This document shows positions 3,158 through 57,358 of a DNA stretch of 64,000 bases, in pieces. Each line of letters starts with the position of its first letter. Within the stretch, counting starts at the first letter, position 1. This DNA is from an uncultured virus (IMG/VR IMGVR_UViG_2838114448_000008). Lineage: Duplodnaviria > Heunggongvirae > Uroviricota > Caudoviricetes. The stretch lies in IMG/VR virus record IMGVR_UViG_2838114448_000008. One strand, written 5' to 3'. The position numbers and the translations under genes were made by a program. Below the pieces are notes generated by a model. It saw only the letters and a program-made list of their open reading frames with translations. It searched no databases and was not told the origin of the DNA.

Positions 3158-3907
3158 ATGTCGATCACCATCGACCAGTCGTTCATCAAGCATTTCCAGG
3201 CCGACGTGCACCTTGCCTTCCAGCAGATGGGTTCCAAACTGCGCAACACCGTGCGCGTGAAGGACAATGTGCAGGGCGCCACGACCGTGTTTCAGAAGGT
3301 CGGCAAGGGCACGGCGTCCACCAAGGCCCGCCACGGCATGGTGCCGGTCATGAACCTGGACCACACCCCGGTGGAATGCGACCTCCAGGACTTCTACGCC
3401 GGCGATTGGGTGGATCGCCTGGACGAGTTGAAGACCAACATCGACGAGCGCCAGGTGTTGGTGAACGCCGGTGCCTATGCGCTCGGCCGCAAGACCGACG
3501 AACTGATCCTGGCCCAGCTCGACACCTCCACCAATCACGCCCAGGACGGCACCACAGGCCTGACCCTGCGCAAGATCATGGAGGCGTTCGAGATGCTGGG
3601 CACCGCCGATGTGCCCGACGACGGTGAACGCTACGCCGTGGTCGGCTGGAAGCAGTGGTCGGAGCTGATGCAGATCGAAGAGTTCTCCAACGCCGACTAC
3701 GTGGGCGCGGAGGACCTGCCGTGGCGCGGCACCCAGGCCAAGACGTGGCTGGGGACTCTGTGGATGCCCCATTCTGGGCTGTCCCTCGACGGCGGCGTGC
3801 GGCGCTGCTTCTGGTACCACAAGACCGCCATCGGCCACGCCATCGGCGCCGAGGTGCAGTCGGACATCACGTGGCACGGCGACCGGGCCGCACACTTCGT
3901 GAACAAC
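3158..3907 (+). pseudogene. Major capsid protein of the resident element, 5' part (codons 1-250), interrupted by the prophage; frame runs on to a stop at 4333
   Basis: MSITIDQSFIKHFQADVH...AYALGRKTD...DITWHGDRAAHFVNN is capsid-like; composition changes abruptly after attL; missing 3' end found at 57290-57358. Confidence 0.88.
3893..3907 (+). repeat. attL core CACTTCGTGAACAAC
   Basis: Exact 15-bp direct repeat with 57275-57289; about 110 bp from the integrase stop. Confidence 0.93.
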
Positions 3908-4015
3908 GAACGGGCACCCCGCAAACGTTCTGGAAAACCGCGACCACGGAAAGGGATGTCAGGCACGTTATGGCCAGCCAAAAACAGTTTTTGGCCCAAC
4001 CTCATCGAAAAATCC

Positions 4016-5041
4016 CTATCCAACATCTTGGGTGCTCGAAAAATCCAAGGCACTAGCCGCGCTGTCCAGATAATCCGGAGCGTGCTTGCCGTAGGTACGC
4101 TCTACCATGACCTCGGACATGCCGAGCATGCGCGCGACTTCTCGTGTCGGCGTGCCCGCCATGACCATCCACGTCGCCGCCGTGTGGCGGAAAACATGGG
4201 GCGTGATGCGAGCGACTCCCGCACGCACGCACGCGGCTTCCAGGCCGCGCCGGACGTCGTGAACCCGCGACCCGCCAAACTCAACCACCCACTGCGTTGT
4301 CGCGACGGCACGCGCCGCTTTCAGTTCACGTAGTAGGCTGTCGTGTATGGGAACGACGCCCCGACGCTTCCGCTCATTCCCTGGTCCGAAATCAATCCGT
4401 CTGCGCTCGAAATCAACGCCGTCCCACGTCAAGCCAAGGATAGCCTCGCGGCGATGCCCGGTCATGGCGGCGATAACGATAAACAGCCGGATGTGCGGCG
4501 CAATGGCGCCATCAACGAGGCGCCGAACCTCGTCCTTGGTGAGCCACCGCTCGCGCGGCGGGGATCGCCGAACAGGCATTTCAAACGTGAGTTTGGCGGA
4601 CGGGGGCACCATCTTCTGCTTGATGGCCCAGTTCACGGACGCCCGCAGGAACAGCATATCGTTGTAGGCGGTGCTATGGCTCTTCCCAGCGGCCAGCCTC
4701 TGTTTTGCGAAGCGCGCGACAGCCTTTTGCGTGATGTGTTCCGGCTTCAGGTTCCCGAACTCACGCGCCAGCATACCGCATGTCGCCTTGATTGACCCAT
4801 ACGACGCCCGTTCCCGCCGGCTGTCGGAGTATGCGGCCAAGATCTGGCCCATCGTGGCAACGTCGGGCTGTGCCTCGGCCCCAGCCTTGAATTGATCTAG
4901 GAACCGGTCCGCTTCTGAGCGGTCCTTCGTGCCACTTGAAACCCGTCGCGTGCGACCGTCCTCGGTCCATGTGACGTAGTAGGTGCCGCGCTGATTTCGG
5001 ATGAGCCTGTATTTTGGCTCCGTGAGGCGGGGGCGGCCCAT
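4016..5041 (-). CDS. int: Tyrosine recombinase (phage integrase)
   Basis: TGHRREAI (catalytic R), PHVFRHTAATWM (HxxR), ERTYGKH (catalytic Y); adjacent to attL. Confidence 0.95.
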   Translation of the reverse strand: MGRPRLTEPKYRLIRNQRGTYYVTWTEDGRTRRVSSGTKDRSEADRFLDQFKAGAEAQPDVATMGQILAAYSDSRRERASYGSIKATCGMLAREFGNLKPEHITQKAVARFAKQRLAAGKSHSTAYNDMLFLRASVNWAIKQKMVPPSAKLTFEMPVRRSPPRERWLTKDEVRRLVDGAIAPHIRLFIVIAAMTGHRREAILGLTWDGVDFERRRIDFGPGNERKRRGVVPIHDSLLRELKAARAVATTQWVVEFGGSRVHDVRRGLEAACVRAGVARITPHVFRHTAATWMVMAGTPTREVARMLGMSEVMVERTYGKHAPDYLDSAASALDFSSTQDVG

Positions 5042-5202
5042 TGTTCATAAAGCTCCTCAAACGTCGCCCGATCGATCCGATATGCCTTCAGGGGTGTACT
5101 TAGCACAGGGATCTCACCTCTGCGGATCATGTCGCGCACGGTCTTCGGATGGACCTTCAGGCGTTCCGCGACCTCTTTGACGTCCATGCACGGGGGCGTC
5201 AT
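4897..5202 (-). CDS. xis: Excisionase-like HTH protein
   Basis: MDVKEVAERLKVHPKTVRDMIRRGEIP...AYRIDR HTH_17-type motif; immediately upstream of and overlapping int. Confidence 0.8.
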   Translation of the reverse strand: MTPPCMDVKEVAERLKVHPKTVRDMIRRGEIPVLSTPLKAYRIDRATFEELYEQWAAPASRSQNTGSSEISAAPTTSHGPRTVARDGFQVARRTAQKRTGS

Positions 5203-6155
5203 GACGGCCCACCGCTGTGCTCGAGGTCGTCCAGCAGCCGGCCGGCGGTGTGCTTGCCGACGCGGACCATGGGGCGCCCATTAACGATGTGGTCGGGTTG
5301 GAAGCAGTGGACAGACCCGTCGTGCGCCACGATGAAAGCTGGCGTCCGCTGCATGCGCCCCCGGCTGGTGTCGTAAGGCTCCCCATGCAGCGGCGGACGC
5401 CACTCCCCCCACTGCTTGAAGAAAAACGGCACACCCGCCGCCGCGCACTGATCGCGCAGCGAGCGCGGCCAATCCGGATGCATCGGCCGGGCATACGGGC
5501 CGGATTCCCCGCCGCAGATGACCCAATCAAGGTTCCCGAGCCACGGCGTCAGGCCCACCGGCCCCAACAAGGGCTCGACGGACAGGCCCCGCCGCGCGGC
5601 TGGCGTGTCGAGCAGGATCGGGATCCGCAGGTCCGCCATCTCGTGGTTCTCGACGCTGACCAGCAGGGTGACGTTGGGCAGCGGCCAATCCCTGGTGTCC
5701 GGCCAGGAGGGATCGTCCTGCGTCATGCCGATGTGCCAGAGAGGGGGCATGTGAACGCCGTTGCCCGCGTCACGACCGCGCGTCAGATAGTCCCGCGCGA
5801 CCTTGGGCCGCTTGGTGACGACGATCCAATCCAGGTGCGGGGTGAGCGCCATCACGGCGAACACCTCGTCGCGCCATTCTGTCGGCACCTCCGTGTCGAA
5901 CACGTCGGCCAGCGACGCACAGAACACGCGGTACCGTCGACCGTCCCGCGCAGCCCTGCGATCCCAGGCGAACGGCTGGCGCCATGTGGACTCGGCGGCC
6001 CGTCGGCGCGGCTGGCCGTGCCCCCAGGGCACACTCAGGCGGCGCCCGACGCCCTCGGCATAGCAGTGATCACAAGCCGGCGAGACCTTGGTGCAGCCGA
6101 TCCACGGGTTCCAGGTGTGATCGGTCCACTCGATCTTGCTGTACTCGCCCATCAC
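5199..6155 (-). CDS. Phage Gp37/Gp68 (DUF5131) family protein
   Basis: SKIEWTDHTWNPWIGCTKVSPACDHCYAE, WVICGGESG, PFFFKQWG. Confidence 0.9.
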   Translation of the reverse strand: MMGEYSKIEWTDHTWNPWIGCTKVSPACDHCYAEGVGRRLSVPWGHGQPRRRAAESTWRQPFAWDRRAARDGRRYRVFCASLADVFDTEVPTEWRDEVFAVMALTPHLDWIVVTKRPKVARDYLTRGRDAGNGVHMPPLWHIGMTQDDPSWPDTRDWPLPNVTLLVSVENHEMADLRIPILLDTPAARRGLSVEPLLGPVGLTPWLGNLDWVICGGESGPYARPMHPDWPRSLRDQCAAAGVPFFFKQWGEWRPPLHGEPYDTSRGRMQRTPAFIVAHDGSVHCFQPDHIVNGRPMVRVGKHTAGRLLDDLEHSGGPS

Positions 6156-10750: not shown

Positions 10751-11473
10751 CTATTGCGGCCTATGCCGCCATCGATACTCGCCCACAACGATCCCGATAA
10801 CTTCGATATCGCCATTTCCGGCTTGGGGCTGCTCGTGGTCCCAGCCTTCACATCGGATAGGGGCCTGATGGGCGGGGTTTGAGCTCCGGGGGACCAGCCA
10901 GAATGCACCGTCAGGTGCCCGCTGCAGCTCCTTCACTGTGTATTCGCACTCTGCGCTATCTCGACTGCGGCGTTGAACAATTACGTGCTCGCCATGGCGG
11001 ATATCGTCCCAAAACTCCATACGCCCCACACAGATTAGAACCGTGCCGGGCGGATAAACCAAATCCATAGAATCGCCGACAACCCGTAAGCCAAAATATT
11101 GAACGTCGGGTCCGCCGGGATGCGATATAGAGACAAACTCACGCTCTTCTAACGGAATTTCAAACTCCATCTTCCAAACCCCCGCCTGTACTTCGCCGAT
11201 CACAGGTATCTCGAGCGAAGGCATCAGAAGCGGGGTCGCATTTCTTTCGCGGGACATGTCATCAAAATCCGAGTACGACAGCCCCGAAAGTCGCTCCAAC
11301 GCAGCAATTACAGGCGCGCTTAAGCAGTTGCTGGCGGTGGGTTTGATGAAGCGGTTAAGCGTGGACGGCGCACGCCCGATCCTTCGGGCCATGTTGGTGG
11401 TATCCAACCCCGTCGCCTCTTGGGCGGCCTTTACAAAAGCAATCTGTCTTCGACGAATTTTCCCGGTTTCCAT
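10751..11473 (-). CDS. cI: CI-like repressor (HTH plus S24 autopeptidase)
   Basis: N-terminal HTH, GEVQAG cleavage site, VVGDSM serine, YTVKEL lysine; divergent from cro. Confidence 0.88.
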   Translation of the reverse strand: METGKIRRRQIAFVKAAQEATGLDTTNMARRIGRAPSTLNRFIKPTASNCLSAPVIAALERLSGLSYSDFDDMSRERNATPLLMPSLEIPVIGEVQAGVWKMEFEIPLEEREFVSISHPGGPDVQYFGLRVVGDSMDLVYPPGTVLICVGRMEFWDDIRHGEHVIVQRRSRDSAECEYTVKELQRAPDGAFWLVPRSSNPAHQAPIRCEGWDHEQPQAGNGDIEVIGIVVGEYRWRHRPQ

Positions 11474-11483
11474 GTAGCCATGA

Positions 11484-11552
11484 TGCGCGGTTTTGCGCAT
11501 TTCGTCCGTAGGCAATAATGCGCTTGACGGTGCGCAAAGATGCGCATACCGT
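11484..11552 (+). promoter_or_regulatory. OR/PR: three operators (11484-11499, 11509-11524, 11531-11546) and PR TTGACG-N17-TACCGT
   Basis: TGCGCA-AAGA-TGCGCA fills the 17-bp spacer; two degenerate copies lie toward cI. Confidence 0.8.
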
Positions 11553-11561
11553 GATCGGGCC

Positions 11562-11798
11562 ATGAGACATTCTGTCGTCGAAACCATCGTCGCCATAGAG
11601 CAGCGCCTCCGGGCAGCGGGAGTGCCGGTGGGAGAGTTTTGCCGTCAAGTCGGTGTCGATAGAGCCACTTGGCAGCGATGGAAGGCCGAGCAAACGAGTC
11701 CGCGTGTCGCGACCTGGAACGGTGTTCTGGACGCTGCGGACCGGATCGAACGGCCGCAAGAGGGTTGCGACCCCACCCCCAACGACGAGGCCGCGTGA
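11562..11798 (+). CDS. cro: Cro-like HTH protein
   Basis: VGEFCRQVGVDRATWQRWK HTH; small gene divergent from cI, just after PR. Confidence 0.8.
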   Translation: MRHSVVETIVAIEQRLRAAGVPVGEFCRQVGVDRATWQRWKAEQTSPRVATWNGVLDAADRIERPQEGCDPTPNDEAA

Positions 11799-21019: not shown

Positions 21020-21565
21020 GTGGTGGCGTCCGCCGATCTGAATGACCGTCAGCGCGCGTTTTGCGAGGAATACCTCGTCGATCTGAACGCGACGCAGGCC
21101 GCCATTCGGGCGGGATACGCTGAGGATTCCGCGGCCCAGCAGGGATGGGCGCTCCTCAGAAACCCGAAGGTTTTCAAGGAAATCAACAGGTTGAAAGCCG
21201 AACGGCGCCAGCGGCTTGAGGCCGATCAGGACGCCATCATCCAGGAGTTGACCTGTCTGGCGATGTACGACGCGGGCGAGATCGCCGGAGCCGAGGTCAG
21301 CAAGCCCGGTGATATCGGCAAACTGCCCGAGCACATTCGCCGCGCCATCGTCGGCTGGAAATGGGATCGGCACGGCAACCTCGTGCTCGATCTGGCCAGC
21401 AAGACGGCCGCGCTCGACCTGCTGGGCAAGCACCTGGCGATGTGGATCGAGCGGGTCGAGCACGGCGGAACGGTGGAGATCACCGACACCGAGCGGGCCA
21501 AGCGCATTGCCCAGATGCTGGTCGCGGCCCAGAACCGCAAGGACGGGGGCGGCCATGCCGGGTGA
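21020..21565 (+). CDS. terS: Terminase small subunit
   Basis: LNDRQRAFCEEYLVDLNATQAAIRAGY...ALDLLGKHL. Confidence 0.93.
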   Translation: MVASADLNDRQRAFCEEYLVDLNATQAAIRAGYAEDSAAQQGWALLRNPKVFKEINRLKAERRQRLEADQDAIIQELTCLAMYDAGEIAGAEVSKPGDIGKLPEHIRRAIVGWKWDRHGNLVLDLASKTAALDLLGKHLAMWIERVEHGGTVEITDTERAKRIAQMLVAAQNRKDGGGHAG

Positions 21566-42248: not shown

Positions 42249-43354
42249 CCATGGCTCTCCCCCCTCCGACCCGCATTCCCCGCCCGGGCCCTTCATCTGC
42301 CGCCATCCTGCCGCGCCCCGGCGGCCTCCGGTTCATCCGGGGCAATCCGATGATGGAGGGTTTCCAGGCGCAAGAGCAGCGCAACGCCCAGGCCGACGAA
42401 CGCGCCCGGATCGACGACCAGCGGCGCCGGCAAACCCAGTTGGCGGGCCTTCAGGCCGATGCCGCCAGCGCCCGCGCGGCCGGCCAGGATCCCTTCTGGC
42501 GCGAGAACCATCAGGCCAAACTGGCGGCCGCCGGCTTCGGTGGCGAAGCCCTGGCCAGCATGGACCAACACCAGGACCGCGAGGAACAGGCTTACAAGCA
42601 GGTCTTCGAGTTGGCGGCGCAGGGCAATGCGGCGGGCGCGAAAGCCCTCGCTCAGCGGGCTGGACTGGAATGGTCCCCTGACCTGGACAAGGCCGTTTCC
42701 GACCGCCGCGCCGCGACGATCTTCAAGGAGATCGCCGACTTCGGGGCATCGCACGCGACCCAATGGGCGCAGGCCTATGGAGCCGCCCGCGTCGGCGGCG
42801 CCTCCCCCTGGGACGCGGCCGCTCAGGCCGGGCCGGTTCCCCCGAAACCAACCACCCGCGCTCCATCCGCCCTGCGCAATGTCGAGATGCTGGACGCCGA
42901 GGGCCAGCCGGTCCTGGGCACGTTTGATCCCAACACCGGCCAGTACACGCCGTCTGACCAGCGCGCCCCGACCCGGCCGTCCGCCGCACGCGACCCCTCG
43001 TTGGTGCTGTCTGACGCCCAGCGGGCTGCCCGAGCGCGCGCCGAATCGATGGCGACCGAAGCTGATCCCAATCGGATGACGGGCGCGCGCGAAGAGGTGT
43101 TTAACGCACAGGAGTACCAGCGGATCTACCCGCAAATCCTGGCCGAAGAAATGCGCCTCCGAGGCCTTGATCCGAGCATGACCCAACACGCCCCGGCTGC
43201 GCCGCCGCCCCACACGCCATCCGCGACCCGCCCCCCTGCGGGTCAGACACCCCAGAATCGCGAGCAGGCCGCCTTGGCTATCCGGGCACGCCTGCAGGCC
43301 GGTGAGATCACCCGAGAGCAGGCCATGCAGCAGCTTCGGGAGATGGGCTACTGA
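42245..43354 (+). CDS. Ejection protein
   Basis: Gln/Ala-rich, coupled to both neighbours, ends MGY before the giant gene. Confidence 0.55.
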   Translation: MTMALPPPTRIPRPGPSSAAILPRPGGLRFIRGNPMMEGFQAQEQRNAQADERARIDDQRRRQTQLAGLQADAASARAAGQDPFWRENHQAKLAAAGFGGEALASMDQHQDREEQAYKQVFELAAQGNAAGAKALAQRAGLEWSPDLDKAVSDRRAATIFKEIADFGASHATQWAQAYGAARVGGASPWDAAAQAGPVPPKPTTRAPSALRNVEMLDAEGQPVLGTFDPNTGQYTPSDQRAPTRPSAARDPSLVLSDAQRAARARAESMATEADPNRMTGAREEVFNAQEYQRIYPQILAEEMRLRGLDPSMTQHAPAAPPPHTPSATRPPAGQTPQNREQAALAIRARLQAGEITREQAMQQLREMGY

Positions 43355-46300
43355 TGGCCAGCGACACCGACCTGAGCGCGTTCTTGGACGGCCAGACCGA
43401 CCACCTTCCGCCTCCCGAAGGGGCCCCGTCCCTTGACGCCTTCCTGGACGGCGAAACCGCCCACCTGCCGCCGCCAGGTGGAGCGGCCTCGCTCGATGCG
43501 TTCCTGGACGCCGGCGCGCCCGACACCCCATTGCCTCCCGCGCCGCCGGAAACGTGGCTCGGCTGGGGGCGGGAGGGGCTGGAGACCGGTTTCAGCCAGG
43601 CGGTCCGCTCGTTCGGCATTGCGGCCGGCCGCGAGAGCACTCCGGATACCATCGCCGAGGCCTACCGCAACCGTGGCCCGGTCCCGGAGGGGCTCGCCGA
43701 TATCGAGGCGCGAATCGCGCCGGCGGGCGACCGCTTGTCCGAAGCGGCCCAGAGGTATCGCGAGGGGTGGCGTGAGCCGTTCTCGGCCGTCCGGCCTGGG
43801 GAACGAGAAGACCCGCCGGACGCCGATCCTCCCGGCACGTGGGTTTCCCGCCAACTGGACCTGTTGCGCGCGGCCGGCGGCTTTGTCGGGGCCATCGGCG
43901 AGGCCGCCGTGGAAGACCCGAAGGCCACATCCTACGTCATCGGGCAAGGCTTAGGTACGTCGGCGCCTGGGGTCGGAGCCGGATTGGCAGGGGCCTTCGC
44001 GGGCTCGTTGGCTGGCCCGGCCGGGTCCGCCATCGGTGGCCTCGGCGCCATGGGGGCCACCAACACCGCCATGGAAATGGGCCTATGGGTGGAAGGGGCC
44101 GTGCTGGAGCGGGCCCAGGACCTCGGCCTTGACCCGGAGGATCCCGCGTCCATTCGGCAGGCGATGCAGGACGAAACCTTCGTCCAGAACGCCCGCGCCG
44201 AGGGCCTGCGCAAGGGCTTCACCACGGCCGCGGTCGACACCGCGATTTCCGTTGTGACAGGCGGCGTGTCCCGACTCGTCCAGCCGGCGTCTCACCTGGG
44301 GCGGGCCGTCAAGGGTGGCGGCATGTTCGCCATCGAAACCGTCGGCGAGGGCGTATCCGAGGAAGCGGGCGGGTACGCCGCAACGGGCGAGGTGGACCTG
44401 ACCAACGCCGGCATGGAGATGCTCGGCGGTGCGGGCGCCGGAGCGATCCATGCCGGCGGGATCGGCTTGGTCGAGCGTATGACACGGCCGCCCCCACCTC
44501 CCCCCGGGGGGGACGAAGAGGGTTCGGACACCGATACACGGGCGGGCGCGGGCGAACCCCCAGCACCGCCGCCTCCTCTTCCGCCCGGCCCGAAACCGGA
44601 ACCGGGCGCCCGTGTGACCGCGACGATTGCCGGCGAAGAGTCCCCGATCCTGGGCACCGTGGAATCCGTCGACGATCAGGGCGGCGCCATGGTCCGCATG
44701 GCCGACACCGGGGACCTGGAACCCTTCGACGTCCGCGATCTGCGCCCGCTGTCCGAGGCCGATGAAATCCGCACGGTCCTGGGCGAGAACACCCTTCCGC
44801 CCGGCTCGGAAACGTCGACCCCGCCCTCGCCGGCCCCGGACGAGCTTGACCGCGTGCTCAACAGCGATCAGCCGGTCGACACGATCATCGCCGACGCCGA
44901 CGGCCTCCCAACTGGCCGCCAGCGGGTGACCCTGCCCTCCGGCGAGACCTTCGAGGCGGACGTGCAGCCCCTGCCCGACGGGCAGATTCGCGCGGAAACT
45001 TCGGATGGCGACGTGCTGGTGTTCGGTGCGGAGGATGGCGCGCGGTTCGAGCCGGTCGACGCCAGCCCGGAGACGCCGTCCCGTCCCGAACATCCGGACA
45101 CCACGGTCCCCGCCGCGCTTCAGCCGGACGTCGATGCGCTGATAAACCAAGGGTGGGATCCGTTGGACGCCCGGGACGAGGTCATGGAGCGCGCGGCCCT
45201 GCGCGATGACACCCCCCTGCCACTGGACGACATCGGCGCGATCGAAGCCGATGACCGCGCGCCCTCCATGCCGACCCCACCCGCCGCCCCGGCATTTGAG
45301 GGCATGCAGCAGGGCCGGCGGCTGACCGATGCGGAGATTGGGCTTGAATCCGCTGCCGCCGCAGAGCCGGAAACAGCGCGCGATCGCCTCGACGCCGCCA
45401 TAGAGGACGAACGGGCGGCGGAGGCCGATCTCTTCGCCAGTATGAACGACCAGACGATTGCGGCATGGACGGCCGCCAGCGAGCGCCGCGCCGCTGCGCA
45501 AGCGGCTCTTGACCCAACACCGAATCCCGTCGCGCCGGACGCTGGCATGTCTTCGCGCATTCCGGCCATGCCGGGCGGGGGGCTTCGGCGCGAAGCTGTG
45601 GGCATGGGGGAGATGCTGAATTGGGACCGGCCGCTTGATGGAGCGACCGTCTCAGAACGACCGGGGGCGTTTGAACCGCAAGGGTCATCTGTGTCGCAGG
45701 CGCCCCCAAGTGCGGACCATGCCGCATGGTGGGACAGCCTTTCGCCTGATGACCGGCGCCGTGTCGTGGGTGGATCAGGTTGGAAAACTCGCGCCGGACA
45801 TCTTTCGCAACTGGGGCGCAAAATTGCCAGCCGGTTGTGGGACGAACATCCCGACACCGTAAAGGCCACCCTCGCGCGGGCGATGCCGCCCAGCGGGCGC
45901 GGGATCACACTGTTTGGTCGGAATACGGCGTCACCCGACACGCCTCCGTCGCCCCCTGTTCAACCGCCGGCCCAGCGGTCACCCCGCCCCTCCCGTCGAC
46001 GCGCCCCCAAGGCCCCCCCGCTCATAGACCGCTTGGAAAACTACTTCCGGCCGGGGCGGATCGTTCGCGGCTATGCCGGCCAGGATCGCGTGGAGCGCTT
46101 CGATCGCCAGCCCGATGGCAGGTGGAGCGTCACGGTTCATCACGTGGACAACGATGGCAACCGAGCCGGCCGCAGTCGCACGCACATGACGCCACCGGAT
46201 GATCGTGCGCTTCAGGCTTGGGAGCGGGACAACCCATTGGTGGCGGCAACCGACGAGCCACCCACGGGTGGCGGCGCGATCGAGACCCCGCCCGAATGGG

Positions 46301-49300
46301 ATGCGCCGGATAAGGCGCCCCGGCCCTCGCAGACTGAACAGCCGGCCCCGGACAAAGCGAGCGCCCCAGTCCCATCACGCATTGAGGACTTCGGCGAGAA
46401 ACTGGAGGGAGCACGGAAAGATTACGCGACCAAGCTGCGCGACGCCCAGGCCGTGGACTTGATCGCAGAGCCGCTCTCCAAAGCCTGGCCCGAGCCCGAC
46501 TACCAGAAGCTTCTGGATGCCGGCACGGATCGAACCATCGTTGCTTTCCTGCGCGCAGCCAGGGATGCCGTCCCTCCAAAGCCGCGCAAGTCGTGGAAGT
46601 TGAAGGAGTGGGTTCGTCAGGTCGAAACGCTTCGCAATGCGGCCAATACGATGATGGACGGCGACGGTCAGAAGATCGACCAGCTCATGACTGAACTGCG
46701 CCGTCGCAGGCCGTTGCAAAGCATTTTCAACGCCGTCGAACTGTACGAGGCTGTCGGACACCAGAAGTCCCTCAAGGGCGTGCGCATTTCTCGCGGCCAG
46801 TACAGCCTGTATGGCGGCAAGGAGTACAACCCGCCCATGGTCATGTGGACCATTGAGCGGGAGGCGAAGGCGACCGCGTTCGGAAACTGGCCGCACAAAC
46901 TGGCATCTGGTGAAACCCGCGAAGATGCCATCGACAACTTCAAGGCCAACTACGCCACCGTCGAAACGCAGCCAGAAGCCAAGAAACAGATCACGTTCGA
47001 CATCTACACCCGCGATGTGGCTGGGCGGGCCGCGGCAAAGAACGCCCGTTGGACGATCGGCAAGAAGATCGGTCGTGACCGCATAGACCTGAAGACCTTC
47101 GACACCATCCAGGAAGCGCGCGCCTATCTGACCGAGAATCAAACGGAACTGGAGCGGTTGCTTGCCGAGGCTCGTGATATTCCGAACGAGCGGCGCTCCA
47201 CCAACAGCCCCCGCGTGGGTGTGGATCACCGCGACGGCGCGGATGTTACGCCGGAGCAGTTCACCGAGGCGTTTGGGTTTCGTGGCGTCCAGTTCGGCAA
47301 TTGGGTGGAAGGGGACCGCCGCCAGCAAGATCTGAACGAAGCCTATGACGCCCTGATGGACCTCGCCGGTGTTCTGAACGTGCCGCCGCGCGCACTGTCC
47401 CTGAACGGGGAACTGGGGCTGGCTTTCGGAGCACGGGGGCGGGGCGGCAAGCAGCCTGCCAAGGCCCACTACGAGCCCGACACGATCGTCATCAACCTGA
47501 CGAAAAAGGCAGGCGCCGGCTCGCTGGCCCATGAGTGGTGGCATGCGCTGGACAACTACTTCTCCCGTCGTCGCGGGCAGTCCGGATACCTGACCAACGC
47601 CCCCTACGAGCGGCCGTCATACGATGCCGAGCGGAATAAGGTTCCGGACCCGACGCGGCCTGAGATGATCGACGCGTTTGCGAGCGTGATGCGCGCGATC
47701 AAGCAAACCTCTCTGTCCCAACGGTCCAGACACCTGGATAAGCGCCGGACCAAGGCCTATTGGGCGACCGACATCGAAATGTCGGCTCGGGCCTTCGAGA
47801 GCTACGTCATCAACAAGCTGGGCGACCAGGGGGCCGCCAACGACTATCTCGCCAACGTCGTCAGTGAGGATGCCTGGACGCTTGAGGGTGGCTATCCCTA
47901 CCCGACGGCCGGGGAAATCCCGGCAATCCGTGCAGCGTTCGACCACCTGTTCGACGTCATCGAGACCCGCGAGACGGCCGATGGCAATGTCGCTCTATTC
48001 AGCACGCGACACCCCACGTCGCCCCGCGCCGCGTCCCTGGCCTACACCGAGGCCGTTACGGCGGATGCGGTTCGCCTGCGCCGGCGCCTGAAAGCCAAGC
48101 TGCGTGAGATGGGGCTGGGCGACGTGGATGTGGTCATCGCCAACGATATCGGCGGCGGCACACGCAACGGCTTCTACTGGCGCGGCTTGATCGCGGTCGC
48201 CCTGGACCAGGGGCCCGACGCGGCCGAGGCCACGCTGGACCACGAAGCCATCCACGCCCTGCGCCGGCTCGGTCTCCTCAAGGGCGCCGACTGGCGGGCC
48301 TTGGAGCAGGCCGCCCGCGCGGAAGGCTGGATTACCAAGCACCGCGTGGCGAAACGCTACCCGGACCTCTCGGCCGAGCAGCAGCTTGAAGAGGCCATCG
48401 CCGACGAGTTCCGGACGCGCCGCGCCGGCAAACCCCACCGTCACGCCCTGGTCCGCCGAGCGTTGAACGTCATCGCCCGCATCCTCGACCGGATCCGCGA
48501 GGTGTTCACAGAGCGCGGCATGACGGCCGAAGACGTGTTCCGGCGCATTGAGACCGGGCGGGTGCGACAGGATAGGCGTGAGCGTCAAACCGGACCACGA
48601 GCGCGGCCGGATGAAAGCCGGACTGGCCCCTTCGGACCGGTATTCACCGGCTACCACCATGACGCACAGGGCGCCATTAAGCGGCTTCTGGAGGAAAAGA
48701 CGGGCGAAGCCGTGGCGGCCCTGTATCACCCCGAAATAGGCGACATCGATCTCGTCTGGGGACTAGAGGGCACCGGAGCCAGCAATGGATATGGCCTCGC
48801 CAAGCTGGCGCGCTGGCATCCCGAGGTCTTGGACGACCTACAAAGCATTCTGAGCGATATGCGGGTTGAGCAACGCGGCGGAAACAGGGTCCGATTGGCG
48901 TCCGAACGATACCGTGCCGTGGTTCGCCTGCAATGGGATAACCAAGCGAAAAATTGGCTGCTCACGGCCTTCGAAAAGAGAAGAAGCGGCATCGGCACGA
49001 CGACAGGCACTGCCGAACTTTCTGGTGGGGATGACACAGCTCGCTCCACCGCCGCTTCATCTCATAATGTAGACCAAAGCACGCCGGGGTTCCAGAGCCC
49101 TGACGAATCCCGCCGCCTCCCCGCCGACACGCCGACCCCGGATCAAGCCATCCGACAGGGCGAAGCCGGCCTTCGCGACCAGCGCACCACCCAGGGCCAG
49201 GGCGAGACCTTGGCCCACCAGCTCGGGCGTATCCGGTCCTACATCCTGCATCCGCGCATGATCGCCAGCCGGCACGCGGGCTTCGTGCCCGTCTACAACG

Positions 49301-52059
49301 CCGTCATCGACCGGCGCCGGCTGCGCGACAACATCACCATCACCCTGACCGAGAAGCGCCGCCCCTATGTGAACTTGAACGAGGCCAGCAAGCGCAAGGT
49401 CAACGCGGTGCTCGAGATCGGCCGCCTCCACCAGTCCAACTACACGGACACCCAGCTGAGAGAGGGCGTCACGACGGCTCTCGAAGGCACATCCGCCGCC
49501 ACGAAGGGCACCGTCTACCGCCTGACCGATAAGGAGATCGCGGGCTACCGCGCCTACCGCGAGACCATGGATACGGCGCTGGACCTGTTCCGCGACCAGA
49601 TGATCGAGGAATGGGCCGACCGTCTGGGTGTGCCGAAGGCCGAGGTGGCGACCCTCAAGCAGATCGCCGAAAAGATCGCCGTCATGGAGGACGGGCCACA
49701 GCGGGACCAGTGGCGGCAGTTCTACGACACCATCTTCCAGATCGAGAACCAGAAGCGAATCGGGTACGTGCCGTTCAGTCGCTGGGGCACCATCGCCGTC
49801 AAGGTCACGTCCGAGACCGAGACGGAGCCTGTTCCCGGTGCCGAACCGGACCCGCAGACCGGAGAGGTCCCGACCCGGCCGAAACTGGTGCGCTGGGAGA
49901 AGATCGAGATCGACGGCATGGGCCAAGCCGCGCAGCGGGCTATCGAGGCCGCCTTGCAGCGCGGTGACGGCGGCCGGATCGCGCAGATCCCGGCCGTGCG
50001 CAAACGGCTCGCAGCGCTGCGCCGGCAGTACCCGGAGGGCGCGTTCAAGATCAACCCGCCGCGCGAATTGGCCGGCCCCCTCAACACCGAGGACGTCACC
50101 ATCGCCGGCATCGACGCCCTCGCCAACAACGCCGGCATCGCCCAGAACAAGGCCTACGGGGAAGTCCGGGACGCACTTGAGGATGCGATCCAGGCCCGCG
50201 GCTTCCGACGGCACTTCTTCCAGGCCCGCAACGTGCCCGGATACAGCGGCGACCTGGACCGGGCTGGCGCGGACTATGTCGTCGGGATCGCGCGCTACCT
50301 GTCCGACCGGCACTACCGCCAGCCGATCGAGACGGCGCTCGGCAAGATCGACCCGCGCCAGAAGCGCCTGAAGGACTATGCCGACCGCTACGTGGACTAC
50401 GTCGATCAGCCGCAGGAGGAGTGGCAGACGCTCCGCGCCTTCGCGTTCTACTACCTGCTGACCGGCTTCGGATCGGCCTTCGTCAACCTTACCCAGGTGC
50501 CAATCATCACCGCACCGTATGCCGCCATGTTCGAAAGCAACCCCGGCCGCCTCGCCTGGCAGTTCGCGCGGGCCGCCGGCGAGGCCATGGCGATGGTCAC
50601 GGTCAAGAACGGCTGGGAGGCCTTCGATCCAAGCAAGGCGCCAAAGGACGTGCGCGACGACCTCACTGCCGCGTGGCACGACGGCCAGATGTGGCCGCAG
50701 ACGTCATTCGAGGAAATGGCCCTCGCCCATCGCCGTACCCTGTTCCAGAACCTCGGGCACACGGCCGCATCCGATGCCGGCCGGATCGGCGGCAAGGCCC
50801 TGGGCGGCGCCTTGGAAACGCTGACCCTGATGTTCTCGTTCGCGGAGCGGTTCAACCGGATCGTGACGTTCATCGTTGGCCACCGGCTGGGGCAGAAGCC
50901 GGGGACGAAACGGCGGCTGGCCGAGATTTACGCCAAGAACCCGCTCGCCCGCTCCAACGTGGTGCTGGATCCAAGCCCGCGCGCGGTCGGGACGTGGCTC
51001 ATCGAAGAGACCCACTACCGCATGGGCAAGGAGAACCGCGCGGCCATCGGACGCGGACCGGGAGCCCCGATCACACAGTTCAAGGGCTTCATGATGCAGA
51101 CCCTGGAACTGTACGCCCGCATGGCGACCCGTCATGGCCCGGCCGGCCGGCGGGCGTTCGCTGGCATGATGGTCATGCTGCTGATGTCGGGGGGCGCGTT
51201 CGGCCTGCCTGGCGCGGACGACCTGAAGGATATGATCGAGGCCCTATGGCGTCAGTATTTCGGGGTCGACCGCGACTTCGAGACCGAGTTCCGCGAAGCG
51301 CTGATCGAACTGACCGACAGCCGCACCGTCGCCGAGGTGCTGGCGCGCGGCGCATCGCGGGCCACCCCGGTTGACCTGGGCCGTCGCATCGGCTTGGGCG
51401 ACCTGATCCCGACCGCTCAGCGCGACATGGATTGGTCTGATCTGGCCGGGCCGGCCGTCTCGACGGTCACGCAACGGGCCCGCCAGTTGGCCGTCGCCTC
51501 TAGCCGCGATGACTGGTCCGAGGCGATGGCGCTGGCCCTGCCCGCCCTCGTTCCGGCCTTCCTGCAATATCCCCTCCAGGGCCTCGTGACCTATCCGACC
51601 GTCGGCGTCGTCTCGTCCTACGACGGCATGACGCTGATCCGGCCGGAGGACATCCAGACCGACGATCAGATGTGGAAGGCCCTCGGCTTCACCTCGACCC
51701 GCCTCTCGCGCGAATGGGAGGCCCGGGAGGCCATCCGCCGGCGCGGCTCCGCCGTCGATGTGCTGCGCTCACGCACATACATGAAACTCGCCCTGGCTCT
51801 GGCGGAGCAGATGCAGGCCGAGGAAGCCGGCGACACGGCTCGCGCGGATGCCGCTGACCGACGCTACCGGGACGTGCTGGCCGCCAACGCCCTGCACAAC
51901 GAGGCCGTCCGCGCCGCTGGACGCGAGTGGGAAGAGGTGCATGTGCGAAAAGCCACCCTCATTCGCAAGGTCCACGAGCTGATCGAGGGCAAACGCCCCC
52001 AACTGCCCCAACGCCTCCAGGGCACCCAGGAGCGGACCGAAGCGGTGTTCGGCCACTGA
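43354..52059 (+). CDS. 2901-aa large polyvalent/internal virion protein
   Basis: GVQFGNW/AHEWWHALD/EMSARAFE (LPD1-like), HEAIH zincin motif, GDIDLVWG..GYGLAK..WLLTAFE (PBECR-like), YVPFSRWG (PLxRFG-like). Confidence 0.8.
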   Translation: MASDTDLSAFLDGQTDHLPPPEGAPSLDAFLDGETAHLPPPGGAASLDAFLDAGAPDTPLPPAPPETWLGWGREGLETGFSQAVRSFGIAAGRESTPDTIAEAYRNRGPVPEGLADIEARIAPAGDRLSEAAQRYREGWREPFSAVRPGEREDPPDADPPGTWVSRQLDLLRAAGGFVGAIGEAAVEDPKATSYVIGQGLGTSAPGVGAGLAGAFAGSLAGPAGSAIGGLGAMGATNTAMEMGLWVEGAVLERAQDLGLDPEDPASIRQAMQDETFVQNARAEGLRKGFTTAAVDTAISVVTGGVSRLVQPASHLGRAVKGGGMFAIETVGEGVSEEAGGYAATGEVDLTNAGMEMLGGAGAGAIHAGGIGLVERMTRPPPPPPGGDEEGSDTDTRAGAGEPPAPPPPLPPGPKPEPGARVTATIAGEESPILGTVESVDDQGGAMVRMADTGDLEPFDVRDLRPLSEADEIRTVLGENTLPPGSETSTPPSPAPDELDRVLNSDQPVDTIIADADGLPTGRQRVTLPSGETFEADVQPLPDGQIRAETSDGDVLVFGAEDGARFEPVDASPETPSRPEHPDTTVPAALQPDVDALINQGWDPLDARDEVMERAALRDDTPLPLDDIGAIEADDRAPSMPTPPAAPAFEGMQQGRRLTDAEIGLESAAAAEPETARDRLDAAIEDERAAEADLFASMNDQTIAAWTAASERRAAAQAALDPTPNPVAPDAGMSSRIPAMPGGGLRREAVGMGEMLNWDRPLDGATVSERPGAFEPQGSSVSQAPPSADHAAWWDSLSPDDRRRVVGGSGWKTRAGHLSQLGRKIASRLWDEHPDTVKATLARAMPPSGRGITLFGRNTASPDTPPSPPVQPPAQRSPRPSRRRAPKAPPLIDRLENYFRPGRIVRGYAGQDRVERFDRQPDGRWSVTVHHVDNDGNRAGRSRTHMTPPDDRALQAWERDNPLVAATDEPPTGGGAIETPPEWDAPDKAPRPSQTEQPAPDKASAPVPSRIEDFGEKLEGARKDYATKLRDAQAVDLIAEPLSKAWPEPDYQKLLDAGTDRTIVAFLRAARDAVPPKPRKSWKLKEWVRQVETLRNAANTMMDGDGQKIDQLMTELRRRRPLQSIFNAVELYEAVGHQKSLKGVRISRGQYSLYGGKEYNPPMVMWTIEREAKATAFGNWPHKLASGETREDAIDNFKANYATVETQPEAKKQITFDIYTRDVAGRAAAKNARWTIGKKIGRDRIDLKTFDTIQEARAYLTENQTELERLLAEARDIPNERRSTNSPRVGVDHRDGADVTPEQFTEAFGFRGVQFGNWVEGDRRQQDLNEAYDALMDLAGVLNVPPRALSLNGELGLAFGARGRGGKQPAKAHYEPDTIVINLTKKAGAGSLAHEWWHALDNYFSRRRGQSGYLTNAPYERPSYDAERNKVPDPTRPEMIDAFASVMRAIKQTSLSQRSRHLDKRRTKAYWATDIEMSARAFESYVINKLGDQGAANDYLANVVSEDAWTLEGGYPYPTAGEIPAIRAAFDHLFDVIETRETADGNVALFSTRHPTSPRAASLAYTEAVTADAVRLRRRLKAKLREMGLGDVDVVIANDIGGGTRNGFYWRGLIAVALDQGPDAAEATLDHEAIHALRRLGLLKGADWRALEQAARAEGWITKHRVAKRYPDLSAEQQLEEAIADEFRTRRAGKPHRHALVRRALNVIARILDRIREVFTERGMTAEDVFRRIETGRVRQDRRERQTGPRARPDESRTGPFGPVFTGYHHDAQGAIKRLLEEKTGEAVAALYHPEIGDIDLVWGLEGTGASNGYGLAKLARWHPEVLDDLQSILSDMRVEQRGGNRVRLASERYRAVVRLQWDNQAKNWLLTAFEKRRSGIGTTTGTAELSGGDDTARSTAASSHNVDQSTPGFQSPDESRRLPADTPTPDQAIRQGEAGLRDQRTTQGQGETLAHQLGRIRSYILHPRMIASRHAGFVPVYNAVIDRRRLRDNITITLTEKRRPYVNLNEASKRKVNAVLEIGRLHQSNYTDTQLREGVTTALEGTSAATKGTVYRLTDKEIAGYRAYRETMDTALDLFRDQMIEEWADRLGVPKAEVATLKQIAEKIAVMEDGPQRDQWRQFYDTIFQIENQKRIGYVPFSRWGTIAVKVTSETETEPVPGAEPDPQTGEVPTRPKLVRWEKIEIDGMGQAAQRAIEAALQRGDGGRIAQIPAVRKRLAALRRQYPEGAFKINPPRELAGPLNTEDVTIAGIDALANNAGIAQNKAYGEVRDALEDAIQARGFRRHFFQARNVPGYSGDLDRAGADYVVGIARYLSDRHYRQPIETALGKIDPRQKRLKDYADRYVDYVDQPQEEWQTLRAFAFYYLLTGFGSAFVNLTQVPIITAPYAAMFESNPGRLAWQFARAAGEAMAMVTVKNGWEAFDPSKAPKDVRDDLTAAWHDGQMWPQTSFEEMALAHRRTLFQNLGHTAASDAGRIGGKALGGALETLTLMFSFAERFNRIVTFIVGHRLGQKPGTKRRLAEIYAKNPLARSNVVLDPSPRAVGTWLIEETHYRMGKENRAAIGRGPGAPITQFKGFMMQTLELYARMATRHGPAGRRAFAGMMVMLLMSGGAFGLPGADDLKDMIEALWRQYFGVDRDFETEFREALIELTDSRTVAEVLARGASRATPVDLGRRIGLGDLIPTAQRDMDWSDLAGPAVSTVTQRARQLAVASSRDDWSEAMALALPALVPAFLQYPLQGLVTYPTVGVVSSYDGMTLIRPEDIQTDDQMWKALGFTSTRLSREWEAREAIRRRGSAVDVLRSRTYMKLALALAEQMQAEEAGDTARADAADRRYRDVLAANALHNEAVRAAGREWEEVHVRKATLIRKVHELIEGKRPQLPQRLQGTQERTEAVFGH

Positions 52060-54461: not shown

Positions 54462-55133
54462 ATGTCGATACCAAGCTGGACCCCTTTTGGTACAATGATG
54501 TATTTTCCTCGTCTGGATGCAAGCGGACACACGCTTCCTGTTTACACCATAGGGTGGCGCTTCACTGATGATGCCGATGAGTGGTCAAGGCGTTTCATTG
54601 GCTTTAAAAATGGCGAACGCGAACATTTGCGCGGCGCCGCCCGGGCCTTAAGGTACTGCATGCAGGACTTTGTGTATAAGAAAAAATTAAAAAAAGAAAG
54701 CACTGGATTATTAACCGCCATATATTCTTCAAAGACAAGGTCAGAAGAAAATTCTTCCTTATATATACTTGGAAAGTGGCTGTCGGCTCAGTTGGATGTA
54801 AAATTTCTTTCACATCACCTTACAAAAGAGGTGCACAGATCCCTTCATAGCTTGGGGTCAAGGTACGATCGAGATTCGGAGGTTTTTCAAAAATATAGAT
54901 GCACGAAAATTACTGGAGTAACTGATGTTATTATTTTAGATGATCTTGTTACTAGGGGCGCTACATTTAAAGATATAAGTCGATCGATCGAAAAAAGTAC
55001 GCCCGGAGTCTCAGTATACGGAATTGCTCTTGCCAAAAATGAGAGGGTTTCGTATGCTAAACAATGCGGAGCCTCCATAAGTAATGGTCATATACCGGAA
55101 AATATGAATAGGTTATGGATTGGAAGTAAATAA
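54462..55133 (+). CDS. Phosphoribosyltransferase-fold (ComF-like) protein, ShosT-like toxin candidate
   Basis: PRPP loop VIILDDLVTRGATF; AT-rich. Confidence 0.8.
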   Translation: MSIPSWTPFGTMMYFPRLDASGHTLPVYTIGWRFTDDADEWSRRFIGFKNGEREHLRGAARALRYCMQDFVYKKKLKKESTGLLTAIYSSKTRSEENSSLYILGKWLSAQLDVKFLSHHLTKEVHRSLHSLGSRYDRDSEVFQKYRCTKITGVTDVIILDDLVTRGATFKDISRSIEKSTPGVSVYGIALAKNERVSYAKQCGASISNGHIPENMNRLWIGSK

Positions 55134-56054
55134 ATGAGCTCCATTGTATCAAATGAAACCTACCGCATACTGAAACTTTCAGTGACACCGGGAGTTGGCG
55201 CAGCTTGTTTGCGTAAGATATCCTTATTTGCTCAGAAAAATGGAATCGAATCACTTTACAATGATAGAGATGTATACAAGTTTCTGCCCTCAAGAATAGA
55301 AGCGTATAACGCAGAGAGCTCAAGTACATCTGCGGACAAAATTCTTGTGTCCTGTGATGAAAACAATGTTCGTTTGATATCGTTTCTAGACCCCCTATAC
55401 CCTGCCGCATTAAAAAGTGTCCCCGACTTTCCAGTTCTCCTTTATATAAAGGGCGACGCAGCAGCCCTCTCGAAGGTTGGCTGCGCTGTCGTCGGAACGA
55501 GGCACGCAAGTAAGCTTGGGCTTAGCTGGGCTCGGCAAATTGCCTCACTACTTGTTAAGAACGGATTTTGCGTCGTTAGTGGTCTCGCGCTCGGAATTGA
55601 TACGGCAGCTCACGAAGGCGCTTTACAGGCTGGCGGGGCTACGGTGGCGGTCATGGCCCATGGTCTTGATAAGGTGACGCCAGCAAGAAATAAGAACCTA
55701 TCGACCCAAATAATTGAAAATGGTGGAGCCCTGGTTTCTGAACATGCTCCTGGAGTTCCGCCCCGAAAACAAGAGTATGTTCGTAGAAACAGGATACAAA
55801 GCGGCCTTTCTATATGCTCTTTAGTGGTAGAGAGCAGCGAAAGCGGCGGATCAATATATCAGGGCAAGTTTACATTGCAACAGAATAGGAAGTTATTTTG
55901 TATTATGCCCCCTGAAAATACACGCGGGGTATCCGACTTTCAGGCAGCGGGCGCGAGGAGGTTGATTAGAGAAGCGGGAGCCAAGCCGATTGGCTCGAGC
56001 GAGGAGTTGCTTTCGGCAATTAATTCCGCAGAGATAACCAACTCAATGAACTAA
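55134..56054 (+). CDS. DprA/Smf-family protein, ShosA-like
   Basis: AVVGTR, VSGLALGIDTAAH, RRNRIQSGLS; abuts the PRTase stop. Confidence 0.9.
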   Translation: MSSIVSNETYRILKLSVTPGVGAACLRKISLFAQKNGIESLYNDRDVYKFLPSRIEAYNAESSSTSADKILVSCDENNVRLISFLDPLYPAALKSVPDFPVLLYIKGDAAALSKVGCAVVGTRHASKLGLSWARQIASLLVKNGFCVVSGLALGIDTAAHEGALQAGGATVAVMAHGLDKVTPARNKNLSTQIIENGGALVSEHAPGVPPRKQEYVRRNRIQSGLSICSLVVESSESGGSIYQGKFTLQQNRKLFCIMPPENTRGVSDFQAAGARRLIREAGAKPIGSSEELLSAINSAEITNSMN

Positions 56055-56510: not shown

Positions 56511-56585
56511 TGAAAGCCCCCCCTACTGTCACCCATTGATAGCATAGGGGCTGGTGGCGCTATAGCCTTTCTTTAGTTGTGTATC

Positions 56586-56607: not shown

Positions 56608-56719
56608 TCTCGCGGGACTCAAAACTTCAGCGATGGCTCGCCGCGACGGGCGGCTCGCGCCAAAACCACGACGGTCCGAAAAACGGGATTCTTAGCACTC
56701 GTCGGATCCTCGAACTGAC

Positions 56720-57148
56720 TCACCTTGAAACGCAGTACCCTGGCAGAGGCATTCGCTGCGCCTCGGGCTGCTCATCTTCAGCGTATCGGCCGCCGCTGAA
56801 ACGCGGGCAATCGCGCCCGAGGCCGGCGCGGACAAGGGCCGCCGCAATATCATGGTGATCGATCGAGCACACCCCGATCATTCGGTCGTATGACCTTTCG
56901 CCCGTCAGCGTGCAGGTGACGATCCGGCCGCCAACCAAGGTGCGCATGAACCGCGCTGCCTCAGGGCCGCCAGGGTCGGCCAGCTCCGGAGCATGCAAGC
57001 CCTGGAGTCGGATCGGCTGACCGGAAACCACAATCGTGTCGCCGTCGCGGACGTGCGTGACCTGACCGGTCAGTGTGTCGGTGGCGTAGGCGGAGGTCAT
57101 CATGATGATGGTCATAATGGTGGCTAGCTGGGCGGAGATACAATGCAT
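56720..57148 (-). CDS. Thermonuclease (SNase-like) with signal peptide
   Basis: VRDGDTI...IRLQGLHAPE...SYDRMIG; hydrophobic leader ending SAYA. Confidence 0.85.
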   Translation of the reverse strand: MHCISAQLATIMTIIMMTSAYATDTLTGQVTHVRDGDTIVVSGQPIRLQGLHAPELADPGGPEAARFMRTLVGGRIVTCTLTGERSYDRMIGVCSIDHHDIAAALVRAGLGRDCPRFSGGRYAEDEQPEAQRMPLPGYCVSR

Positions 57149-57248
57149 CGGCGGGACCTCATACTCGAAACAAATTGTGGTGGCCTCAATCCGGCCACCA
57201 CCTTCTTTCGGCATACTTCTTCGCTAATCGCAGCGAAAAACGGCACAA

Positions 57249-57261
57249 TAACCGATTGATT
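57249..57261 (-). promoter_or_regulatory. IHF-binding site in the attR arm (AATCAATCGGTTA)
   Basis: Matches WATCAANNNNTTR, 13 bp inside the att core. Confidence 0.6.
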
Positions 57262-57274
57262 TTAGGAACGAACC

Positions 57275-57289
57275 CACTTCGTGAACAAC
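57275..57289 (+). repeat. attR core CACTTCGTGAACAAC
   Basis: Exact repeat of 3893-3907. Confidence 0.93.
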
Positions 57290-57358
57290 ATGATGAGCCA
57301 GGGCGCGGTGCTGATCGACGGGGCCGGCGTGGCCTCCCTGCCCTGCCACGAAGACTGA
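57290..57358 (+). pseudogene. Separated 3' end of the resident major capsid gene (MMSQGAVLIDGAGVASLPCHED*)
   Basis: In frame with the HFVNN core; followed by a terminator. Confidence 0.88.

Follow-up and report, generated by a model that had tools for sequence, protein, structure and literature searches.

An active temperate podovirus-type phage within the major capsid gene of a candidate gene transfer agent-like particle cluster

The prophage-type element skin lies within the open reading frame (ORF) of sigK, and its precise excision restores the frame; many of the integrases that are directed at the 3′ ends of genes restore the 3′ end of their target. The Listeria comK prophage is described as a case of active lysogeny, with non-lytic excision and a benefit from the restored gene (PMC7397523), and cross-talk between a prophage and a monocin element has been reported for Listeria as well (PMC6872733). 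The helper-embedded PICIs (HE-PICIs), satellites with sizes of 10–20 kb, reside in the capsid gene of the lambdoid helper prophage on which they depend, at a 10-bp block of identity (PMC10111431; Tommasini, Mageeney & Williams 2023). Podovirus-like elements resembling gene transfer agents (GTAs) were first reported in 2026, for Faecalibacterium (PMC12946183), and Azospirillum is described as producing particles with approximately 10 kb of host DNA, the gene cluster of which was not firmly identified (PMC3899980). Here, we describe a 64,000-nt stretch of DNA (the window) from the IMG/VR virus record IMGVR_UViG_2838114448_000008, in which a prophage lies within the major capsid gene of another phage-derived element, referred to below as the cluster. 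The window corresponds to positions 67851-131850 of contig C8 of its own assembly (G000), which consists of 57 contigs and 4.6 Mb.

The arrangement resembles that of the HE-PICIs in that an element with a tyrosine integrase sits within a phage capsid gene at a short block of identity, of 10 bp in the HE-PICIs and 15 bp in the present case, the capsid would not be expressible until the element leaves, and genes appear to have been exchanged between the nested partners. It differs in that the guest is predicted to be a self-sufficient 53.4-kb phage rather than a small satellite, its lineage being unrelated and its terminase, portal, head and tail being encoded by itself, and in that the target, a late-type (capsid) gene here too, belongs to an outer element that, unlike a prophage, is bordered by host genes and lacks genes for an integrase, a repressor and replication. 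The integrase also groups with integrases of tRNA sites, judging by the nearest relatives found. In common with comK, hlb and sigK, the prophage occupies an ORF whose reading frame is restored by precise excision (in silico in the present case); in the comK and sigK systems, however, non-lytic excision and a benefit of the gene were shown, whereas the present locus is known from its geometry, and the interrupted gene is itself phage-derived. Nesting in the late genes of phages has been described for satellites that reside in helper prophages; here, the guest appears to be a self-sufficient temperate phage that has its regular site in a cluster kept across a bacterial order. No description of this cluster, or of a prophage within a GTA-type capsid gene, came up in our literature searches. 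The mechanism seems to be ordinary site-specific integration by an active phage, and what is unusual is that the target, a conserved and apparently domesticated capsid gene, stays unrepaired.

The 15-bp att core, CACTTCGTGAACAAC, has two exact matches in the window, both on the plus strand, at positions 3893-3907 (attL) and 57275-57289 (attR), with 0.00 expected from shuffled sequences, and it is absent from the rest of the assembly. The two repeats are spaced by 53,382 bp. The left copy covers codons H246-N250 of the major capsid gene of the cluster, the 5′ part of which (codons 1-250; 3158-3907, plus strand) encodes a product with 95% identity to the capsid of a genome of the same genus (G005) and matches the Pfam family PF19821 with E 9e-76; as profile positions 1-271 of 293 are matched, only the end of the capsid is missing. 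The ORF starting at 3158 reads up to WHGDRAAHFVNN and then continues, antisense to the integrase gene, for a further 141 codons of unrelated sequence that end with a stop at 4333, which gives a predicted fusion ORF of 391 aa across attL. At the other end of the prophage, the attR core is followed in frame by the orphaned 3′ end of the capsid gene, codons 251-272 and the stop (57290-57358, plus strand), so that the frame reads HFVNN-MMSQGAVLIDGAGVASLPCHED before the stop, and this segment aligns with the tails of intact homologs. A terminator-like hairpin with a U5 tract (57388-57427, plus strand; -26 kcal/mol, z -2.0) lies 3′ of the stop. The six capsid homologs from the same genus are all uninterrupted, with lengths of 272 aa (five) and 273 aa (one), and all continue HFVNN-MMSQG; the uninterrupted gene of these six genomes represents the attB-type empty site. 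Rejoining at the core in silico combines the 250 and 22 codons into an in-frame product of 272 aa, as in the intact homologs, i.e., the prophage unit cuts a 272-codon gene after codon 250. The two exact cores and their positions, their spacing, the 272-aa product, the continuation of the intact homologs and the terminator had all been proposed in an earlier note made from the DNA letters alone, and the repeat search, ORF reading and homologs proved it correct on every one of these points.

The activity of the phage was assessed with contigs from four public sequencing runs (X1-X4) placed on positions 2000-6000 of the window. X1 and X2 are isolate runs, possibly of the source strain itself, and X4 is a metagenome of 2024; contigs omit rare variants, so that rare junction forms cannot show in them. 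In X1, a single contig of 5,286 nt crosses attL at an even depth of 402. In X2, the contig on the chromosome side (depth 281.1) ends at 3922, and the contig on the phage side (depth 683.4) starts at 3893 and is preceded by 15 letters, TTTTAGGAACGAACC, identical to positions 57260-57274; since these letters stand ahead of the core, X2 contains attP (phage right end, core, phage left end), and its phage DNA is present at 2.4 times the depth of the chromosome. In X4, a 177-nt contig consists of 117 nt of the phage right end, the core and positions 3908-3952, which is again attP, and the 30 loose-end letters printed for it match 57245-57274 exactly. Another X4 contig, of 138 nt, covers positions 3815-3952 without a break and has AGC instead of GCA at 3890-3892, which corresponds to the capsid allele with 'ASHFVNN' found in G007; attL joined to this other allele means that a near-identical phage occupies the same codon in the capsid gene of a different host. 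These contigs show that the capsid gene is the regular attB of this phage and that the phage is active, its DNA being circularised or replicated. In X3, the integrase region (3993-5206) is present with few differences. A metagenome search with the core plus 7 phage bases, including one degenerate letter, returned no matches. In IMG/VR, the 15-mer occurs at 99 loci, which comprise 13 capsid genes, the two ends of the same prophage and, for the rest, unrelated chance matches, and no free phage relative with attP is among them.

The integrase gene (4016-5041, minus strand; PF00589, E 1.4e-17; phrog_1, E 1.4e-55) begins the prophage at a distance of 109 nt from the attL core. Matches to its product with E ≤ 1e-30 were found in 47 of the 401 genomes of the order, the best other match having 48% identity; the best identities were 48–50% in a collection of species-representative genomes and at most 51% in JGI metagenomes, and the one other match in IMG/VR had 42%. 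The earlier note had proposed to check whether close integrase homologs in other genomes also sit in this capsid gene; no capsid similarity was found beside the integrase relatives at any of the 67 loci examined (0/29, 0/15 and 0/23 in the three sets). Many of the relatives adjoin tRNA genes, which were present at 11 of 17 loci in one scan, and 11 tRNA genes were found in the set of 23 loci; tRNA-Thr(GGT) adjoins three of the four closest full-length relatives, and tRNA-Gly, Val, Pro, Ala or Arg adjoins others. By these neighbourhoods, the integrase would belong to a clade of tRNA-site integrases, with a protein-coding target that stays unrepaired, as attP carries the 15-bp core alone and no new 3′ end for the gene. 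In this respect, a clade of the tRNA type seems to have gained a protein-coding target without repairing it.

The attP arms look typical. In the right arm, a consensus site for integration host factor (IHF) is located at 57249-57261 on the minus strand (WATCAANNNNTTR; two matches in the window versus 0.2 expected), 14 bp left of the attR core. The left arm (3908-4015, no strand assigned), which in X2 and X4 is joined to the phage right end, is marked by paired repeats of TCGAAAAATCC, at 4005-4015 and 4036-4046, and by an inverted repeat at 3977-3995, all on the integrase side of attL. The integrase abutting attL, the IHF site by attR and the lack of any replacement C-terminus in attP (the ORF past the attL core consisting of unrelated codons) had been noted before and hold. 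As a separate observation, a second integrase gene is found in the same genome at C12:109938-110945, the product of which has 33% identity to the prophage integrase and the frame of which contains an in-frame TAG.

The outer element appears from its genes to be a compact particle cluster of the HTVC010P/T7 type and not a prophage. Without the inserted phage, it has a length of approximately 16.2 kb, from the first base of the window to an endolysin gene approximately 5.6 kb beyond the window end. The closest true phages are the pelagiphage EXVC031P (48.5% capsid identity) and other podoviruses of the HTVC010P type. Integrase, repressor and replication genes were found neither in the cluster of G000 nor in that of G005, and both clusters combine virion, packaging and lysis genes with a lack of replication, integration and lysogeny genes, as GTA-like elements do. 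No phage RNA polymerase or replication module was found beside the cluster, and the genome-wide search with PF00940 was empty, as it was in the control genomes. A CtrA box (TTAA-N7-TTAA) was not found at the cluster start, and the two one-mismatch sites elsewhere in the window are at chance level. On one side, the cluster is flanked by host genes for transketolase, a TRAP transporter, an SDR protein and a secreted trypsin/cadherin protein, and on the other by those for a PLP enzyme, an IF-2B family protein, a histidine kinase and PriA.

The cluster is widely kept in the host lineage. Its capsid was found in 26 of 61 relatives, including six of the seven other genomes of the genus, and in 224 of the 401 genomes of the order, mostly as a single copy and with 70–95% identity. 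Source names on the close capsid homologs include Caenispirillum, Telmatospirillum, Shumkonia, Varunaivibrio and Azospirillum; a link of the Azospirillum particles mentioned above to this cluster is only a guess. Isolate-derived copies of the cluster are present in IMG/VR as units of approximately 12–19 kb. The same gene order was found in all six relatives compared, which come from four families. In G005, the cluster is located in host DNA at another chromosomal place, with metK, pth, L25 and COQ9 at one end and polysaccharide genes at the other. In a tree of 60 capsids (59 fetched plus that of the window), the host-family label changes 14 times, with a minimum of 11 and a mean of 45.6 for shuffled labels, and none of the 200 shuffles gave a number as low; seven of the 12 families form one side of a branch. 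The dN/dS ratio of the capsid (5′ 250 codons) against members of the genus is 0.075-0.14. The phylogeny thus tracks the host lineage and the gene appears to be under purifying selection, which are two properties of GTA-like elements, and the cluster may be considered a candidate domesticated particle system, for which the label "GTA-like" is reasonable because it has no integrase or replication genes, has host flanks, is retained in more than half of these genomes and has a capsid with low dN/dS. It resembles GTAs in being a compact gene set for head, tail, terminase and lysis that lacks genes for replication and integration and is kept by the host lineage under apparent purifying selection; it differs in its gene families, as the portal, scaffold, capsid and tail tube are of the T7/HTVC010P type, and in being known from genes alone. 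The locus therefore points to an undescribed candidate family of podovirus-type GTA-like elements in Rhodospirillales-type bacteria. In one complete genome (G055, contig C1 at approximately 2,554,600; loci L019/L020), the 7.6 kb examined upstream of the capsid gene contained no homolog of the portal or the scaffold, in contrast to the other five relatives compared; the cluster may be split in that genome.

Among the 150 capsid matches listed, only that of G000 ends early, at residue 252 of 272, and all others reach residue 269 or beyond. A DNA motif encoding GDRAxHF(V/I)NN was found in 93 of the 401 genomes, in 72 of which it continues with ATGATG; the other 21 comprise G000, 19 genomes with full-length capsids and G163, which is outside the 150 matches listed. 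No other occupied site was found among these 150 matches or the 93 motif genomes (G163 left out). In a genome of another family (G374; locus L076, contig C37, 10453-11087), only a capsid pseudogene is left, with residues 1-51 and 80-251 and stop codons; it is located between the ubiA and methylmalonyl-CoA mutase genes and ends at the att-core codon (...NLINN). This pseudogene might be the trace left here by a past event, which is suggestive only.

The part of the capsid that is cut off by the prophage is conserved. Among the 30 tails with a length of 22 aa, positions 251-253, 255, 258-260 and 263 are invariant; the HFVNN sequence occurs in 54 of the 56 capsids recovered with the search pattern (of 80 loci); and the tail can be aligned with the C-terminal part of 9eg4_A, a capsid of solved structure (up to chain residue 284 of 289; profile E 4.2e-32). 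This sequence match was used in place of a predicted structure of the intact capsid, which, from a 30-row alignment, had a mean pLDDT of 33.2 and was unusable. With 141 unrelated residues in place of these last 22, and with 53 kb inserted between the genes for the head and those for tail, terminase and lysis, the lysogen would be without the cluster capsid and very probably cannot make the particles of the cluster. The DNA inserted between these two sets of genes also contains a bidirectional hairpin, at 57177-57201. The other genes of the cluster are intact in comparison with G005, and precise excision would rebuild the in-frame 272-aa capsid gene. The earlier note had claimed both that lysogeny knocks out particle production and that excision restores it: the parted head and tail genes, the in-frame product in silico and the presence of attP agree with this claim, the second half of which lacks an observed attB. 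In the orphaned tail of G000, the substitution R268P and unusual residues A265, H270 and D272 were found, and the unique changes (synonymous/non-synonymous) amount to 0/3 in the tail and 16/6 in the 5′ part, counts that are similarly small in intact relatives and too few to decide on decay. In one capsid homolog (L160, IMGVR_UViG_3300035034_004495), there is no stop codon at the usual position and a tail of 94 residues instead of the usual 22, so a C-terminal extension occurs naturally in this capsid family.

We consider it likely that the window contains a temperate podovirus-type phage of 53,382 bp that is integrated in the capsid gene of an inherited particle cluster, the site being incidental and no regulatory role being needed. 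The phage would integrate by means of its own tyrosine integrase at the core in capsid codons 246-250, a site most likely picked as a single-copy sequence that is conserved across hosts, in the way that related integrases use tRNA genes. Lysogeny would leave the capsid of the cluster unmade and split its head genes from the tail, terminase and lysis genes, and precise excision would rebuild the gene; a selected regulatory role is not needed to explain the choice of site. If the cluster makes particles for gene transfer or killing, the lysogen would be without them and cured cells would regain them, which would provide a natural on/off pair for study.

Several points weigh against this interpretation. 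No attB junction, i.e., no rejoined capsid gene, is among the contigs of the four runs, which is weak evidence as contigs omit rare forms, and the attL contig of X2 is at chromosome depth, so that the restored gene was at most rare in that culture; of the two recombinant junctions that the earlier note had expected to detect, attP was thus found in the X2 and X4 contigs and attB was not. As X1 and X2 are possibly from the source strain, they are not independent of the assembly. The 391-aa fusion product is only predicted to be non-functional. The capsid tree that follows the host families would also be expected of a family of prophages with narrow host ranges. Finally, the chromosomal place of the cluster differs between G000 and G005, and strict vertical inheritance at one locus is thus unsupported; the earlier description of the outer element as a GTA-like system is reasonable with respect to the host flanks, the gene content, the retention in the order and the low dN/dS.

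A bolder version of these events, which we regard as rather doubtful, is that an integrase of the tRNA type has moved onto the capsid gene of a domesticated podovirus-like system that is kept across an alphaproteobacterial order, maybe a new kind of GTA, so that lysogeny turns the system off and departure of the phage turns it on, the trade of a tail module between the two elements reflecting a cis-acting contest or coupling. In the prophage-monocin case cited above, an active prophage and a domesticated phage-derived particle element likewise interact in one cell, but the coupling there is regulatory and in trans, whereas here it is a physical insertion in cis. The module in question includes an inner gene (25597-26535, plus strand; tail protein, phrog_5939) and an outer gene (62276-63163, plus strand), the products of which have 81% aa identity over 270 residues; the DNA is 86.5% identical along 805 bp (25719-26522 versus 62344-63147), which is the sole DNA similarity between the two elements. 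There is no close copy of this gene in the G005 cluster, where the outer gene has only a weak (30%) match, in the p407 homolog. Eight matches to the module are found in G000, on contigs C8, C13, C15, C47 and C52, and matches in other genomes were limited to two of 60 searched, with at most 48% identity. It looks like a strain-specific tail or receptor module that has been traded among co-resident elements, including the particle cluster.

It is unlikely that the insertion represents targeted antagonism, in which the integrase would have moved from a tRNA site to the capsid gene because the prophage gains from a disabled particle system. This gain could be escape from host lysis by the endolysin of the cluster or removal of a competitor for the same receptor. 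Several features are in keeping with this idea: the related integrases, unlike that of the prophage, are mostly at tRNA sites, the capsid gene is not repaired by attP, the tail module is common to phage and cluster at 86% DNA identity, and the prophage carries a ShosTA-like defence pair (54462-56054, plus strand; PADLOC matches of ShosT, a PRTase, with E 1e-9 and of the DprA-like ShosA with E 1.8e-71) in an insert near its right end with a GC content of 0.48 versus approximately 0.68 elsewhere. However, any conserved single-copy sequence is a good attB, so that the target may be incidental, and the tail module, being swapped among several elements of this genome, provides no specific link between these two. 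The idea is drawn from sequence features.

That the prophage acts as a regulated switch is quite unlikely. Under such active lysogeny, signal-driven non-lytic excision would restore the capsid, the host would make particles and the phage might re-integrate. The geometry, with an in-frame 272-aa product after excision, fits this scheme, as do the attP form, the remaining cluster genes, which are comparable to those of G005, and two regulatory genes of the prophage, one for an excisionase-like helix-turn-helix (HTH) protein (4897-5202, minus strand; PF12728 (HTH_17), E 4.8e-12; phrog_66, excisionase and transcriptional regulator) and one for a CI/LexA-type, i.e., SOS-type, repressor with an S24 peptidase domain (10751-11596, minus strand; PF00717, E 4.7e-12; phrog_4, transcriptional repressor). 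On the other hand, the contigs contain no attB, the excess of phage DNA in X2 resembles what plain lytic growth in a small number of cells would give, the lytic genes of the phage are present as a full set, and G000 alone was found to be occupied among the capsid matches listed and the motif genomes. The earlier note had suggested, as a possibility, a phage-controlled switch for, or a targeted attack on, a GTA-like system; neither gained supporting data, given the unobserved attB, the chromosome-depth attL of X2 and the single occupied genome, and its interpretation as a whole is partly supported.

It is very unlikely that the outer element is only what remains of a T7-like prophage in decay and that the insertion had no consequence. 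Its lack of replication and lysogeny genes, its different chromosomal places in G000 and G005 and the broken copies in G023, G230, G353 and G374 could be read in this way, but the cluster is kept, mostly in one copy, across the order, with capsids that, G000 excepted, reach residue 269 or beyond among the matches listed, a dN/dS far below 1, a tree that follows the host families and a gene order retained across families. The junctions could in principle come from misjoining at a short repeat in a 57-contig draft, which is hardly credible, since the 5,286-nt X1 contig crosses attL, the core is found only twice in the genome, IMG/VR bounds the same unit independently with the same core and attL with another capsid allele is present in the X4 metagenome, so that misassembly, which the earlier note had named as a possible refutation, does not account for the junctions.

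The remaining genes of the cluster are given here in their order. The first ORF (1-321, plus strand) encodes a proline-rich protein of 106 aa without a Pfam or PHROG match and is preceded by the ribosome binding site (RBS)-like sequence AAGGAAGGAG; a frame that overlaps it has a weak homolog upstream of the G005 portal gene. It is followed on the plus strand by genes for the portal, a T7-type head-tail connector (326-2029; PF12236, E 1.3e-132; phrog_332; 81% identity to the G005 homolog), and the scaffold (2048-3106; T7 capsid assembly protein PF05396, E 4.7e-13). Beyond the prophage, and also on the plus strand, are genes for a conserved 80-aa protein (57449-57691; phrog_18004; present in 6/6 relatives compared), a protein of the tail tubular A type (57749-58366; phrog_394, E 5.4e-45), a large tail protein of 632 aa in the tail tubular B position (58369-60267; phrog_376, E 3.2e-139), a 243-aa protein without a family match (60267-60998; homologs in three of the six relatives compared) and a tail fibre with an N-terminus of the T7 gp17 type (61047-62276; phrog_1640, E 9.5e-20 over residues 10-123). 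The shared tail-module gene comes next, and a second tail-module gene (63204-64000; phrog_5939, E 1.6e-47) extends past the window end. Farther on are genes for a 117-aa protein, a T7-type large terminase (phrog_38), small ORFs, a conserved 103-aa protein and the amidase endolysin.

The inner element is a complete temperate podovirus-type phage of the SOS type, as judged from profile matches that cover the genes for lysogeny and replication as well as those for packaging, virion and lysis in full. The same prophage has an IMG/VR record of 53,397 bp, which carries the core at either end and encodes an identical integrase. Small terminase, large terminase and portal are encoded at 21020-25300 (plus strand; phrog_51, phrog_979 and phrog_156), and the major head protein at 28748-29848 (plus strand; phrog_334, E 4e-74) belongs to a family unrelated to that of the split capsid, with 38.9% identity to its counterpart in Acidovorax phage AP1 and 37.7% identity to the counterparts in the Pseudomonas phages KPP25 and phiR18. 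A giant virion-type protein of 2,901 aa is encoded at 43354-52059 (plus strand; phrog_616, E 6.7e-123), and the final prophage gene (56720-57214, minus strand; PF00565, E 1.4e-5) encodes an SNase-like nuclease. Other genes are those for recombination, an XRE-type regulator, methyltransferases, a helicase, a primosomal protein, tail proteins and lysis. Over positions 5216-6000, which contain the prophage genes that adjoin the integrase gene, the isolate runs also yielded second contigs with 7-12 differences per approximately 140 nt, and the genome thus has a paralogous copy of these prophage genes elsewhere.

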